From: a virus
Lineage: Duplodnaviria; Heunggongvirae; Uroviricota; Caudoviricetes
IMG/VR virus record: IMGVR_UViG_2585427757_000006
DNA: 64,000 bases
Strand: one strand, 5' to 3'
The number at the start of each line of letters is the position of its first letter. Positions within the stretch are counted from its first letter, which is position 1. The notes beneath the pieces were generated by a model. The model did no database searches, was not told where the DNA came from, and was given only the letters and a program-made list of their open reading frames with translations. The position numbers were made by a program, and so were the translations under genes. Positions 2,964 to 60,470 of the stretch are shown piece after piece.

Positions 2964-3362
2964 TCAGTTCTCGAAATGAATAGGGTCAACGTAATGCCGC
3001 TCACCGCTTTTACCATTACACAGCACTGTAACTTTCGCCTTTTCACTCCAGGCTGAGTATAGAAAGTTCCCATCAGGTTGAACATGGTAACGAGAGAAGT
3101 AAACATCGCCGACTGAGGCGTCGAACATGTTCCTATCTTTTTCACTTTGGGCAAGCGAGATGGATATCACCGAATTCCCATTTGGGGAAACGATTTTAAA
3201 TTTATTCCCTATATCCATAACAATATTGTAACCAGGTAATTGCTTGTGTGTTTCCGGATCTATTTTCATGCATCGTGGGTACACGATAGTGTTAGGCTCT
3301 TCAACTGGCGTGGCATTAGCAGAAAGCACAAAAAATATTAGTGCCAATGGTGCATATTTCAT
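2964..3362 (-). CDS. hypothetical secreted protein with N-terminal signal peptide
   Basis: 132-aa ORF, hydrophobic N-terminus MKYAPLALIFFVLSANA. Confidence 0.45.
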   Translation of the reverse strand: MKYAPLALIFFVLSANATPVEEPNTIVYPRCMKIDPETHKQLPGYNIVMDIGNKFKIVSPNGNSVISISLAQSEKDRNMFDASVGDVYFSRYHVQPDGNFLYSAWSEKAKVTVLCNGKSGERHYVDPIHFEN

Positions 3363-3656
3363 TTATCCCTCACAATTTCCAATTTTCCAGACCATCGTCT
3401 ATTTCAGCGTCAGGGTGGAATTGTACCGCATCAAATCCTACATCGAGCACCTTTCGAATGTTCTTGATGGTTTGCTATGTGACACCGTAATCACGCAGCT
3501 TTTCTTCCCTCCCCTGACTCCCCCATACTCCGTTTCTGTACCCAATTGAGTCCGAGATTGTATGGTGCTCGAAACAGATATTTGGTAGACACTCAGAGTC
3601 ATGCTGTGTAACGAGGGTAGGGCTACTAACTGTCGTCTTATACAATTTGGTGAGTT

Positions 3657-3905
3657 TCAGCATTTTACCACCCCGTTCGGAAACAACTCATTCGCCGTAG
3701 TTGATATAACCTCCCAATTAACGCCGACATCAGCGTTATGGCATTGTCTGATTTTTTGCATCACCTGTACGCATTGTTCATCAGTGAGATCTGTCCTTAC
3801 TTCAGCAATATCTTCTTTGTGCCACATAACCATGAGTAAGGGTTCGTCTTCTGGATAGTTTTTCAGTTTCTCGATGATTTCTTTTGCTGTTCCAAACATC
3901 TTCAT
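3657..3905 (-). CDS. hypothetical protein
   Basis: 82-aa ORF with SD ggag and the recurrent aaacaaNttgttttct motif directly upstream of its start. Confidence 0.5.
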   Translation of the reverse strand: MKMFGTAKEIIEKLKNYPEDEPLLMVMWHKEDIAEVRTDLTDEQCVQVMQKIRQCHNADVGVNWEVISTTANELFPNGVVKC

Positions 3906-4011
3906 CTCCTAAACAATTTGTTTTCTTATATGACTTATTATCTCAATCAACAAAAGGTAGAAAACAAATTGTTTTAGAGTTTGTTAAAGTCAGAAGGGGT
4001 TGTGTCTATAT

Positions 4012-4040
4012 GAAAATGCCCGGCGTGTTGCCGGGCATTG
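4012..4040 (-). terminator. rho-independent terminator downstream of metG
   Basis: GC hairpin gcccggc-loop-gccgggc followed by a T-run on the minus strand. Confidence 0.6.
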
Positions 4041-4058
4041 CGAAGAGAGGGTGTTTAA

Positions 4059-6092
4059 TTACTTAACCTGGTGGCCAGGTTTAGCACCAGCATCCGGGCT
4101 TAACAGGAAGATATCTTTCCCCCCGGGGCCAGCAGCCATTACCATGCCTTCGGAGATACCAAAGCGCATTTTACGCGGTGCCAGGTTGGCCACCATAATG
4201 GTGTGACGCCCGATCAGTGCCTGCGGATCTGGGTAGGCAGAACGAATACCGGAGAAGACATTGCGTTTTTCACCACCGAGATCCAGCGTCAGGCGAAGCA
4301 GTTTGTCAGAACCTTCTACAAACTCTGCGTTTTCAATCAGCGCCACGCGCAGGTCAACTTTGGCGAAGTCGTCAAAGGTGATAGTTTCCTGAATCGGGTC
4401 GTCAGCCAGTGGGCCAGTTACCGGTGCGGCTGTGGCTTTCACTTCTTCTTTGGATGCTTCCACCAGTGCTTCAACCTGCTTCATATCGATGCGGTTATAC
4501 AGTGCCTTGAACGGATTCACTTTATGGCCCAGCAGCGGTTGCTGGATACCATCCCAGGTCAGTTCTGTATTCAGGAATGCTTCTGCACGTTCAGTCAGTT
4601 TCGGCAGTACCGGTTTCAGGTACGTCATCAGCACGCGGAACAGGTTAATGCCCATAGAGCAAATCGCCTGCAGATCGGCATCGCGTCCTTCCTGCTTTGC
4701 CACCACCCACGGAGCCTGTTCATCAACATAGCGGTTAGCCAGGTCAGCCAGTGCCATGATTTCACGGATAGCTTTGCCAAATTCGCGGCTTTCCCATGCT
4801 TCGCCAATCACTTCAGCGGCATCAGTAAAGGTTTTGTACAGTTGCGGGTCAGCCAGTTCGCTTGCCAGCACGCCGTCAAAACGCTTGTTGATAAAGCCTG
4901 CATTACGGGAGGCCAGGTTAACCACTTTGTTAACGATATCGGCATTCACACGCTGAACGAAATCTTCCAGGTTGAGATCGATATCATCAATGCGCGAAGA
5001 GAGTTTCGCAGTGTAGTAGTAACGCAGGCTGTCGGCGTCAAAATGATTCAGCCAGGTGCTGGCTTTAATAAAGGTGCCGCGAGACTTGGACATCTTCGCG
5101 CCGTTCACCGTCACATAGCCGTGAACAAACAGGTTGGTCGGCTTGCGGAAGTTGCTGCCTTCCAGCATGGCAGGCCAGAACAGGCTGTGGAAGTAAACGA
5201 TATCTTTGCCGATGAAGTGGTACAGCTCGGCGGTGGAGTCTTTCTTCCAGTATTCGTCGAAGCTGGTAGTGTCGCCGCGTTTGTCGCACAGATTCTTGAA
5301 GGAACCCATGTAGCCAATCGGCGCGTCCAGCCAGACGTAGAAGTATTTGCCCGGTGCGTTCGGAATTTCAAAACCGAAGTAAGGTGCGTCACGGGAGATA
5401 TCCCACTGTTGCAGGCCAGATTCAAACCACTCCTGCATTTTGTTTGCCACCTGCTCCTGCAACGCACCGCTGCGGGTCCATGCCTGCAACATTTCGCTGA
5501 AAGAAGGCAGATCAAAGAAGAAGTGTTCGGAATCACGCATTACCGGTGTAGCGCCAGAAACCACTGATTTCGGCTCGATCAGTTCCGTCGGGCTGTATGT
5601 CGCGCCGCAGACTTCACAGTTATCGCCGTATTGATCCGGCGCTTTACATTTCGGGCATGTGCCTTTTACAAAACGGTCCGGCAGGAACATGCCTTTTTCC
5701 GGGTCGTACAGCTGAGAGATGGTGCGGTTTTTAATAAAACCGTTCTCTTTCAGGCGAGTATAGATAAGCTCGGACAACTGACGGTTCTCTTCGCTGTGCG
5801 TCGAGTGATAGTTGTCATAGCTGATGTTAAAGCCTGCGAAATCAGTCTGATGTTCCTGACTCATTTCGCCAATCATCTGTTCCGGTGTGATACCAAGCTG
5901 CTGTGCTTTCAGCATGATTGGCGTACCGTGGGCATCGTCGGCACAGATGAAATTAACCTCGTGGCCGCGCATTCGCTGGTAACGAACCCAGACATCAGCC
6001 TGGATGTGCTCCAGCATATGGCCGAGGTGGATTGAGCCGTTAGCGTACGGCAGCGCGCACGTCACCAGAATTTTCTTCGCGACTTGGGTCAT
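4059..6092 (-). CDS. metG: methionine--tRNA ligase
   Basis: 677-aa product from [40 protein letters not shown] motif, C-terminal tRNA-binding domain; start trimmed from track ORF to the conserved N-terminus. Confidence 0.95.
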
Positions 6093-58982: not shown

Positions 58983-58987
58983 CAAAA

Positions 58988-59013
58988 AAGGGGCCGAAGC
59001 CCCTTTGGATTTT
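58988..59013. terminator. bidirectional rho-independent terminator
   Basis: aggggc-cgaa-gcccct hairpin flanked by A6 and T-rich runs; sits between the plus-strand gene and the minus-strand tRNA cluster. Confidence 0.7.
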
Positions 59014-59160
59014 GCGCTTAAAAAAGTGTTGCTAGGATGTTAGCAAGCTATGGTTAAGAACGTCTGCCGTAATTGTCTATCACAGCGTTGAGCGGTCTGG
59101 TTTATGTTAGCGGAGTCTTAATCTGGGTGATTAAAAGGCCAAACCGCTCAACGCTGTGTC

Positions 59161-59247
59161 TGGCGGAGAGTAATGGAATCGAACCATCATCGCTTGCGCA
59201 ATGGGACGGTTTTCAAGACCGCTTGAGCACCATGCTCCCTACTCTCC
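59161..59247 (-). tRNA. tRNA-Ser(UGA), type II with long variable arm, CCA encoded
   Basis: Acceptor ggagagt/actctcc, anticodon loop cttgaaa, T-loop ttcgatt; D-loop unusually short. Confidence 0.6.
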
Positions 59248-59471
59248 GGCCGTTGTGGTGGCCGGTACTGAATCTCCGGCATACGGTGCAGCCAATTAGG
59301 ACTACGGACGATCACCGCTCGCGAAAGGGAAGATTTGCGGCCGCATTTCCCTAACATCCAAGAAAGCTATCGCATCAGTCTGCGAATCCACCACAACGGT
59401 AAGATCACTACCTTTCGACCAGTCATTGTGCACATGAACGACGATTAACCGTAATGATCTTATCGTTGTAT

Positions 59472-59547
59472 TGGTGCCGGTTAGCGGACTCGAACCGCTG
59501 ACATCCTGCTTACAAGGCAGGCGCTCTACCAACTGAGCTAAACCGGC
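59472..59547 (-). tRNA. tRNA-Thr(UGU), CCA encoded
   Basis: gccggtttagctcagttggtagagc D-arm, anticodon loop cttgtaa, T-loop ttcgagt. Confidence 0.75.
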
Positions 59548-59551
59548 AATT

Positions 59552-59638
59552 TGGTGGGGAGTGATGGAGTCGAACCACCCGAGTCGCAATGACAGTAGAT
59601 TTACAGTCTACCCCGCTGCCCCTACGGACTAACTCCCC
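59552..59638 (-). tRNA. tRNA-Tyr(GUA), long variable arm, CCA encoded
   Basis: Acceptor ggggagt/actcccc, anticodon stem gtaga/tctac with loop ctgtaaa, T-loop ttcgact. Confidence 0.65.
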
Positions 59639-59643
59639 TAAAT

Positions 59644-59718
59644 TGGCGATGGTGGGTGGATTCGAACCACCGACCAGTTGGTTAACAGCCAACTGCTCTA
59701 CCGCTGAGCTACACCATC
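59644..59718 (-). tRNA. tRNA-Asn(GUU), CCA encoded
   Basis: Acceptor gatggtg/caccatc, D-arm gctcagcggtagagc, anticodon loop ctgttaa, T-loop ttcgaat. Confidence 0.75.
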
Positions 59719-60470
59719 AATTCAGCACTGCCAGTATTTATTACTCAACAGTGCCAATCGCGACGGTTTAGTTTCTGCCAGGAAACGCACCGCTACTTGC
59801 ACTTTTCGTTTGTGCCAGACGCTTTCGACTTCGCTCAATAGTAGAAGGCAAAATCTTTAAGTAGATGATGTTTCTGAGGACAGCACCTACTTTGTAATTT
59901 ATACAATGTGATGTATGGAATCATTTGTTGTGAAAACAGGCACCAATGGCAACAGTGGTTAAACCTACACAACAATCCTGTCTTCACAACGTTGAGGCCA
60001 CTACTCCGATTGAATGTTTGCCCAACATGTTACATATCAACGCTCGCCGGTATCTCTGTGAATAGAACCTTAGAATTGATAAAAATGTAATGGCCTCAAC
60101 GTTGTGTGCTGGCTAACCATACCAGCCGGGCTACGTCGCCGCTTTTTAACCCAGTATAAACGACATAATTGAACAAAATGACGTAACAGGATGGGCGGTC
60201 AGTGGCTAAGAATCCGGGAGTCATATGGAGTTGAAAATATACCAACCGCCCATTCTGTTCCCTCCTGCGTTCTGCAATCACACTCGCTCAGTGTGTCCCA
60301 TTTCGGTAACGAGGCTGGAAACTGACCTCGCTGGTGTTTGGCTTATTAGGCTACTGCCAGATAGACTTCTTCGTTTGCACTTGTATTTAAGTTCAAACAG
60401 TCGCGTCTCAACGAAAACAAAGTCATCTTATACATAAAAGATAAGTAAGTAAATACTTATCAATATGTTT

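Follow-up and report, generated by a model that had tools for sequence, protein, structure and literature searches.

Phage tRNA clusters are known to give rise to RNAs other than tRNAs. Species 1 and 2 of phage T4 (genes rnaC and rnaD) are stable small RNAs encoded within the tRNA cluster on the strand of the tRNAs, and species 1 has paired ends and a large inserted non-tRNA domain. Other phages carry three-way-junction RNAs of the C4 type (RF01695), in which a closing stem joins two GC-rich hairpins, and c4 RNA is freed from its precursor by ribonuclease P (RNase P). The ROOL and GOLLD RNAs of phages and prophages, which measure 500–800 or more nucleotides (nt), often lie beside tRNA islands, and loop pairings inferred in them from covariation proved to be intermolecular. 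Engineered 'tRNA scaffolds' for recombinant RNA expression were reportedly described by Ponchon and Dardel in 2007. In phage lambda, LPR2 is an Hfq-bound RNA of ~63 nt that gives a northern band, is found mainly in the lytic cycle and forms chimeras with other RNAs (bioRxiv 10.1101/2024.10.31.621285). Here we compare with these systems a 224-nt gap between the tRNA-Thr and tRNA-Ser genes of IMG/VR virus record IMGVR_UViG_2585427757_000006 (Caudoviricetes), of which a stretch of 64,000 nt, hereafter the window, was analysed. The window belongs to a P1/D6-like phage-plasmid whose closest relative is Escherichia phage CMS-2020a, with 98.8% identity over the region.

The gap was found to contain two separate structured modules, and we are highly confident that both are genuine structured RNAs of two families. 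Module A, judged by its arm sequences, is a clamp hairpin of the lambda LPR2 type, and module B is a three-way junction that encloses a variable insert, here called the cargo. Read in minus sense, the gap (59471..59248) consists of a spacer, module A, module B and 2 nt that precede tRNA-Ser. An initial annotation, made from the sequence of the window alone, had described this interval as an insert encoding no recognisable tRNA, and both parts of that description held: neither ARAGORN nor the Rfam tRNA clan, nor any other Rfam family, gave a match in 59248-59471 even at E<=10, and the gap can be called an insert because phage Cyrano has only 8 nt (ACACAATT) at the same Thr-Ser junction. The same annotation had proposed a 12-base-pair (bp) interaction across the gap, which is complementary at 12 of 12 positions with its arms 126 nt apart, the second arm having been placed one base off. 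Such 12-bp pairs are expected by chance ~0.002 times in 224 nt (an estimate), and the pairing is taken to be real since it is also conserved and covarying in hundreds of relatives, in which it forms the closing helix of module B (helix P1). Of the explanations offered at the time, a small RNA or processing structure is the one that agrees with a gap made of one module closed by a covarying helix and another that is the counterpart of LPR2. That annotation had missed that all features lie on the minus strand, that the hairpin adjoining tRNA-Ser is a third clamp-style module and that the array extends over ~1.4 kilobases (kb).

In module B, helix P1 closes a junction of two short hairpins, hp1 and hp2, between which the cargo is inserted (Table 1). 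The loops of the two hairpins are complementary, ACUGA of hp1 with UCAGU of hp2. Helix P1 of the window is 10–12 bp long, in a family defined by at least 7 bp with the 3' strand abutting hp2 and with commonest lengths of 7–9 bp. Members of the family have a linker AAU followed by an hp1 loop G(G/A)CUGA; the window has AUU with GACUGA, which was counted as a match, and this hp1 variant is common to P7, D6 and locus L120. The hp2 stem is the family's GCCGG/CCGGC, and its loop AGAUUCAGUA corresponds to the family's UCAG(C/U) with one extra U relative to the consensus. The cargo of 88 nt falls within the family range of 12 to about 170 nt.

The family was delimited by scanning viral contigs three times, with the 5' arm, hp1 alone or hp2 alone as the anchor, and family counts derived from these scans refer to the matches listed. 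With the 5' arm as anchor, the 3' motif, which had not been constrained, was present within 400 nt in 123 of 130 instances; these instances measured 68 to 218 nt in total, and two longer calls look like mis-paired arms of different copies. Anchoring on hp1 revealed a 5' strand of helix P1 with hardly any sequence constraint that nevertheless complements the bases immediately 3' of hp2. Anchoring on hp2 gave an upstream partner for a 7-bp helix P1 in 66 of 82 new loci, nearly all of them followed by AAU and hp1, and here the hp1 stem proved free (GCGCA, GAGCA, GCCCG, GCGAA, GCCGG, GCAAA) around a constant loop GGCUGA. In the alignment of 143 distinct frames (A1), 92.3% of cells were paired compared with 83.0% in shuffles, double-change cells numbered 284 compared with 70.5, and the covariation score was 0.276 compared with 0.102. 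None of 500 shuffles reached the observed values, and controls in shifted register paired in 27–49% of cells. Compensatory changes were found at all 10 pairs of helix P1, at 3 of 5 in hp1 and at 4 of 5 in hp2, and the inner seven pairs of helix P1 were formed in 136–143 of the 143 frames. A MAFFT alignment (A4) split hp2 between rows with cargo and rows without cargo.

The strand on which the structure acts could be read from the wobble pairs. In the orientation of the elements as read here, G.U pairs outnumbered A.C pairs by 83 to 20, an excess that points to RNA folded from a single strand. The structure, the covariation and the strand are direct results of the analysis, as are the distribution of the family and its genomic context. 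This result bears on the proposal that the conserved arms act as DNA, namely as recombination or homing sites for cassette exchange comparable to attC sites, miniature inverted-repeat transposable elements (MITEs) or homing targets, with RNA structure as a by-product. Identical arms around different interiors at one locus (Jedunavirus loci L006 and L048), the absence of the insert from Cyrano compared with its presence in the window, CAAC/GTTG at module boundaries and HNH endonuclease genes directly beside module B on the same strand (at L006, 2363-3157, at L048 and in a set of 10 loci) would all be expected of such sites. The proposal is nevertheless very improbable, as it does not account for the G.U excess, for covariation in helix P1 and the hp1 stem at unconstrained sequence, which recombination driven by homology would not call for, for an orientation strictly that of neighbouring tRNAs or operons, or for the existence of lambda module A as RNA; moreover, GTTGTGG breaks the attC core GTTRRRY, which has R at position 5 (IntI integrases were not searched for). 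A role in cassette exchange at the DNA level could coexist with an RNA function.

The hp1 and hp2 loops can pair in 98% of cells of the alignment, and one position of this contact varies, being G-C in 123 frames, G.U in 13, A-U in 4 and another combination in 3. Locus L004 carries two copies in one genome, of which one has G/C and the other A/U at this position. With such a contact the layout of module B is like that of a tRNA in topology only: helix P1 takes the place of the acceptor stem, hp1 of the D arm, hp2 of the T arm, the cargo of the anticodon and variable arms, and the loop-loop contact of the elbow. As in a tRNA or a tRNA scaffold, a terminal helix of ~7 bp sits on a 5-bp hairpin, the loop of a second hairpin meets that of the first, and foreign RNA replaces the anticodon arm. 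The differences are that the loops of module B pair by Watson-Crick complementarity, that there is no T-loop/D-loop elbow and no conserved CCA, and that tRNA models give no score. A 3' ACC(A) tail had seemed common by eye and was rejected as a family feature.

The resemblance also fits, on its face, the suggestion in the initial annotation of an unusual or interrupted tRNA, in the form of a degenerate, interrupted or intron-containing gene: the gap lies within a tRNA cluster, the helices of module B follow tRNA topology, and a T-arm sequence GGGTTCGAATCCC occurs in the interiors of some phage P1 and D6 copies of module A. Such a broken gene is barely credible here, since the gap yields no hit with ARAGORN or, even at E<=10, with the Rfam tRNA clan, an anticodon arm, a T-loop and a conserved 3' CCA are all lacking, and the same frame occurs hundreds of times far from tRNAs, with no tRNA in the examined locus for 116 of 152 unique elements. 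The comparison with T4 separates along the same line. The rnaC RNA, which is not similar to module B in sequence, lacks an hp1/hp2 pair and possesses a canonical T arm (CCGGGUUCGAAUCCCGG). The T arm of the species 1 type (GGUUCGAAUCC), which adjoins the 3' strand of the terminal helix, has no equivalent in module B, where the hp2 loop AGAUUCAGUA is not a T-loop. We know of no variable-cargo family for T4 rnaC.

The cargo was compared across the family. A total of 209 unique cargos formed 149 clusters, and the same flanks may hold different cargos (L006 and L048). A given cargo class also turns up in more than one genus and with more than one P1 helix. The window cargo is ~75% identical to that of a Klebsiella Jedunavirus copy, and RNAalifold analysis of the cargos of the window, P7, D6 and the Klebsiella Jedunavirus gave two shared hairpins with compensatory changes at 7 pairs. 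The cargo is itself a conserved structured domain. In addition, a cargo class at loci L074, L083 and L096 was observed to resemble nt 254-282 of 16S rRNA, with 26 of 29 positions identical (E = 2e-5 against the rrnB operon). This part of 16S rRNA belongs to the helix 11 region, and the differences in the cargo, read by eye against the 16S sequence, look compensatory.

A structured cargo between two hairpins raises the question of C4, the nearest described three-way junction. Module B could be a C4-type antisense regulator that RNase P sets free and that uses its variable region to pair with a matching target in another part of the element, for phage-specific ends such as immunity. It shares the plan of the Rfam C4 family, in which a closing stem joins two GC-rich hairpins with GCGCx and GCCGG stems, C4 is found in the same kinds of phages, and hypervariability is what would be expected of immunity-type specificity. 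However, the closing stem of C4 measures 17 bp, nothing is inserted between its hairpins and their loops are not complementary, and the gap gave no C4-clan match at E<=10, whereas a genuine C4 in L018 scored 80.7 bits against a gathering score of 45. The cargos are mostly folded hairpins rather than open loops, their length varies from 12 to about 170 nt, and the 64-kb window, outside which ~40% of the plasmid lies, has no complementarity to module B longer than expected by chance. We therefore consider a C4-type regulator decidedly unlikely.

Several other described RNAs were tried and rejected as identities for the gap. Rfam models for C4, isrK, Drum, ROOL, GOLLD, YrlA and self-cleaving ribozymes had no match in it at E<=10, and ROOL and GOLLD differ further in length and fold. 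The M3 RNA of phi80, considered as a minimal module B, is annotated in its record as an oop homologue, and phi80 lacks an hp1/hp2 pair, as does HK022, whose put antiterminator RNA was considered as well. The anti-sRNAs (Tree et al. 2014) and Pas small RNAs (sRNAs) occupy the same 'moron' slot as the elements described here and are different RNAs, the anti-sRNAs being convergent pairs of 51-60 nt. The modules are thus of a known kind in so far as stable non-tRNA RNAs of phage tRNA clusters (T4 rnaC, rnaD) and three-way-junction RNAs (C4) have been described; the frame with complementary loops, the hypervariable cargo and the breadth of occurrence appear to be new.

Module A supplied the experimental link. 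In the window it is a hairpin with a predicted folding energy of -19.6 kcal/mol (z = -2.8), and the CAAC of the preceding spacer can pair with the GUUG after the module, which would extend the clamp; these pairs are kept in 40–50 of 50 arm pairs (alignment A3). Members of the LPR2-like family have arms CAACAGGUAAGAGCAUU and AGUGCUCUUUCCGUUG that pair around a variable interior, and the window arms fit this pattern with a 1-nt deletion and with compensatory changes such as G-C to U-A. Across the window and 49 other arm pairs, 12 of 16 pairs of the clamp helix showed compensatory changes, a result reached in 0 of 500 shuffles. The interior of the window copy is 77–79% identical to those of lambdoid Klebsiella phages. 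Among loci that had not been selected for module A, 81 unique copies were counted with interiors of 11 to 273 nt, and module B followed directly in 54 of the 81.

The lambda copy of module A directly follows tR', the terminator of 6S RNA, and the northern probe P844 for LPR2 maps inside it. LPR2 has the same clamp arms, lies at the same position directly upstream of a GUUGUG-type module and, at ~63 nt, has the length of the clamp hairpin. It is the one experimental case, in lambda, of such a module being excised as a discrete RNA. The preprint on LPR2 differs from the present analysis in presenting a single lambda sRNA rather than a family with exchangeable interiors, and module B is not covered in it; the lambda interior is also unlike that of the window in sequence. 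An interior AAUUAAGCGAAU(A/G)CCGGAAGCAGAACCGGAUCACCAAAUGCGUACAGGCGUCAUCGCCGCCCAGC was observed inside a GUUGUGCUG/CAGCACAAC helix in lambda (L130, 1060-1140) and, in P7, within a module-A-type clamp downstream of tRNA-Ser (L002). The same interior under different clamps indicates that interiors move between clamp types. At locus L055 (384-430) a module A interior of ~190 nt has a hammerhead-like core CUGAAGAG...CGAAAC, which scored 28.7 bits with Rfam Hammerhead_1 (E = 0.004) against a gathering score of 34.

The modules occupy characteristic places in their genomes. A tRNA lies within 300 nt of 28 of the 152 unique elements, in all 28 on the strand of the element, and tRNA-Ser(UGA) is directly downstream of module B in 8 of them. 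Co-oriented neighbours are Q-like antiterminators, CI-like repressors and NinG upstream, and endolysin, Rz and holin downstream. Elements are thus found in tRNA arrays, in a 'moron' slot or in leaders of the early-left and late operons that are not translated.

We favour, with moderate confidence, the reading that the modules share a transcript with the tRNAs and are excised from it as stable small RNAs, in which a tRNA-like frame displays an exchangeable cargo. The whole array would be transcribed as one precursor, with the corresponding promoter of P1 and P7 repressed by the C1 repressor, and the nucleases that mature tRNAs, together with other ribonucleases, would cut this precursor into tRNAs and module RNAs. 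If RNase P cut at the 5' end of tRNA-Ser, the 12-bp helix P1 of module B would be followed by a tail of 2 nt, and clamp stems and loop-loop contact would make the products compact and stable. The conserved frame may then be the chassis for processing and stability, while the exchangeable structured cargo may be the active part, which would engage some factor of the host or the phage in trans, as its partner or as a decoy.

Alternatively, the modules may act purely in cis, guiding or insulating tRNA processing, blocking 3' exonucleases or preventing Rho loading on long untranslated RNA, with a cargo that has no function. The invariable location in untranslated leaders or tRNA arrays, co-oriented with the operon, the placing of clamp stems exactly between tRNAs, the great freedom of cargo length and sequence and the lack of a trans target in the 64-kb window are all as such a role would have them. 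We regard it as unlikely, because cargos are structured domains with compensatory changes across unrelated phages, one cargo class is reused under different P1 helices and in different genera, and one cargo is reused in different clamp types (lambda and P7). In addition, the RNA of lambda module A accumulates, is stable and Hfq-bound and is found in chimeras with other RNAs, and the exact conservation of the loops across phyla exceeds what 'any stable structure' would need.

A number of results weigh against the favoured reading, that of excised small RNAs with a tRNA-like frame. No complementary target for module B was found in the 64-kb window, where the longest match was 11 nt and the shuffle median 12. 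Folded alone, module B has a modest minimum free energy z-score of -1.6. No Rfam tRNA-clan model scores it at E<=10, and the tRNA-like 3' ACC(A) tail is present in 15% of helix P1 types when each type is given equal weight, and so is not general. A scan called no sigma-70 promoter near 60440, and the window gave no confirmed promoter. The anchors fixed the sequence of hp1 or hp2 and the detector needed at least 6 pairs in helix P1, which inflates the conservation and the percentage of paired cells, with the diversity of helix P1 and of the hp1 stem unaffected by this bias. Covariation of the loop-loop contact is thin, given that a single position varies and that one or two events may account for the A-U state, and the loops have A.C mismatches at L024, L106 and L397. 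Finally, a 5-bp contact within one molecule may be strained, with a linker of 3 nt on one side and none on the other, and could instead form between molecules.

A wider interpretation, which we offer tentatively and as clearly the less probable claim, is that these elements form a natural modular 'RNA display'. A tRNA-shaped frame and clamp hairpins would hold cassettes, some of them like pieces of 16S rRNA, hammerhead or tRNA arms, which would be swapped by recombination at the conserved arms and would serve as regulators or decoys in countering host factors or defence systems. Pairing of the complementary loops between molecules may give dimers or larger assemblies, as in ROOL and GOLLD. If the favoured reading is correct, a class of structured RNA in about one sixth of complete E. 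coli genomes has gone unannotated, with members in the textbook phages P1, P7 and HK620 and in Shiga toxin (Stx) phages and a diverged copy in lambda, and nature has a counterpart of the engineered tRNA scaffold. The cargos would then be a large and diverse pool of structured candidate regulators or decoys in slots that are also used for toxins, tRNAs and anti-defence genes. There would also be a handle on the old puzzle of why the tRNA clusters of phages encode stable RNAs that are not tRNAs, T4 species 1 and 2 being examples, and better annotation of phage-plasmids would follow.

Canonical module B arms were present in 944 of 5426 complete E. coli genomes, at 836 chromosomal and 237 plasmid places, and among the matches listed no feature was annotated under these E. 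coli genome matches. At least 159 records of cultured phages have module B, among them HK620, Stx2 phages, P1-like and N4-like phages and Klebsiella phages of ~160 kb; P7 and D6 have it also. Where the phage copies have any annotation it is 'hypothetical protein' or 'putative lipoprotein Plp', so that in places the element has been misannotated as hypothetical proteins, as with plp and upl of phage P1 and the 'putative lipoprotein Plp' of RCS47. At least 120 species genomes contain an exact match to the hp1 19-mer, and 80 of the 120 listed have the full element; these 80 species are mostly Gamma-, Beta- and Alphaproteobacteria, with a few metagenome-assembled genomes of other phyla in which binning errors are possible. 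The exact 224 nt of the window were found at full length in 60 plasmids and as partial matches in 178. Module B is absent from Rfam 15, a search with Rfam of 34 other module B loci gave no match to it, and no description of it was found by keyword or consensus-string search of the literature, of which the coverage was partial.

In phage P1, the record shows only the antisense open reading frames (ORFs) plp and upl between trnT and tciA, where the module array lies. This array (L342, 7503-8233; record 69502-70232) reads A, small B, C, D, B, A and a B variant, and plp ('putative lipoprotein') and upl run antisense across it, which may make them spurious ORF calls; the same may be true of 'putative lipoprotein Plp' in RCS47, under which a module B lies. 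The P1 record also marks a 'dicF-like region' (68791-68892). A hairpin with an anticodon-like loop, ACGGG(C/U)UCAUA(A/U)CCCAAUC, shares these leaders in P1, P7, L008 and L018, and in L018 a boxA-like GCUCUUUUUACAA follows module B (oriented 3300-4400). In Klebsiella Jedunavirus, an HNH gene, module B and a terminator form an island on the strand opposite to the baseplate and tail genes, with cargos that differ between phages.

In the window the modules are part of a non-coding array of ~1.4 kb on the minus strand (60378..58987), in the order tag-like frame, hairpin modules, tRNA-Asn, tRNA-Tyr, tRNA-Thr, module A, module B, tRNA-Ser, clamp hairpin and terminator (Table 1). The records of P1 and P7 annotate a C1-controlled ban promoter upstream of the equivalent array, which governs the tRNA genes through ban.

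Table 1. Features of the non-coding array in the window, in minus-strand order
Feature	Position	Strand	Sequence, structure and support
Tag-like frame	60343..60378	-	GCAAACGAAGAAGTCTATCTGGCAGTAGCC then TAATAA, reading ANEEVYLAVA and two stops; near array start; like a transfer-messenger RNA (tmRNA) tag
Two hairpin modules	60106..59985 and 59990..59927	-	CAAC/GUUG-bounded; upstream of tRNA-Asn
tRNA-Asn (GTT)	59644..59718	-	CCA encoded; ARAGORN; Rfam tRNA model 75.5 bits
tRNA-Tyr (GTA)	59552..59638	-	Long variable arm; CCA encoded; ARAGORN; Rfam tRNA model 39.7 bits
tRNA-Thr (TGT)	59472..59547	-	CCA encoded; ARAGORN; Rfam tRNA model 76.5 bits
Spacer	59465..59471	-	AUACAAC
Module A	59398..59464	-	67-nt clamp hairpin; 14-nt arms GAUAAGAUCAUUAC / GUAGUGAUCUUACC; 39-nt structured interior
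Module B, whole	59399..59250	-	Helix P1, hp1, cargo and hp2 as three-way junction
Module B, helix P1, 5' strand	59388..59399	-	CCGUUGUGGUGG; first CC shared with module A stem
Module B, hp1	59370..59385	-	Stem UCGCA/UGCGA, loop GACUGA
Module B, cargo	59281..59368	-	88 nt; hairpins C1 59351..59327 and C2 59318..59283
Module B, hp2	59261..59280	-	Stem GCCGG/CCGGC, loop AGAUUCAGUA
Module B, helix P1, 3' strand	59250..59261	-	CCACCACAACGG; directly after hp2 with no base between; ends 2 nt before tRNA-Ser
tRNA-Ser (TGA/UGA)	59161..59247	-	Atypical type II, tRNA-Sec-like D arm; CCA encoded; ARAGORN
Third clamp hairpin	59081..59158	-	20-nt arms 59081-59100 and 59139-59158; 38-nt interior; directly 3' of tRNA-Ser
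Intrinsic terminator	58987..59006	-	AAAGGGGCUUCGGCCCCUUU then U run; likely 3' end of RNA array

The four CCA-encoding tRNAs of the initial annotation were all called by ARAGORN, and the Rfam tRNA model confirmed Asn, Thr and Tyr; tRNA-Tyr is not present in Cyrano, P7 or D6. The general model failed with tRNA-Ser, for which the tRNA-Sec model was the sole match (46.6 bits, gathering score 47). In the tRNA-Sec alignment its D arm has a long stem and a loop of 3–4 nt, which bears out the short D-loop that had been pointed out, and in the D6 record the amino acid of its counterpart was not called by tRNAscan-SE. This atypical tRNA-Ser(UGA) was observed to be conserved in Cyrano, P7, D6, CMS-2020a and Klebsiella phage KPC53, often with module B directly upstream.

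An inverted repeat beside tRNA-Ser had been reported as 15 bp, perfect and upstream of the gene. The repeat exists and is longer, with 20-nt arms complementary at 19 of 20 positions, and it lies downstream in the RNA sense because the tRNAs are on the minus strand. Its single mismatch becomes G.U in minus-sense RNA, and comparison with KPC53 showed that the stem of this third clamp hairpin is kept and the interior is different.

The peptide ANEEVYLAVA of the frame near the start of the array resembles the E. coli SsrA tag ANDENYALAA, and similar frames (ANDDLMMVAA, ANDDVVLMAA, ANEEMYLAVA and others) were observed in at least 36 loci, P1 and P7 among them, where they precede modules or tRNAs. 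No tRNA-like domain was found, ARAGORN called no tmRNA in the window or in seven related loci, and Rfam gave no tmRNA match in the window at E<=10. In related loci the tmRNA_permuted model gave weak matches only (26 bits, gathering score 47), and BLAST against E. coli ssrA was not significant (E = 0.1-1), so that homology to tmRNA was rejected; the resemblance is limited to the peptide level and the resume-codon context. Within the same array, an ORF of 10 codons (MGGWYIFNSI; 60221-60253, minus strand) follows AGGAGG and lies inside an inverted repeat (60264..60180).

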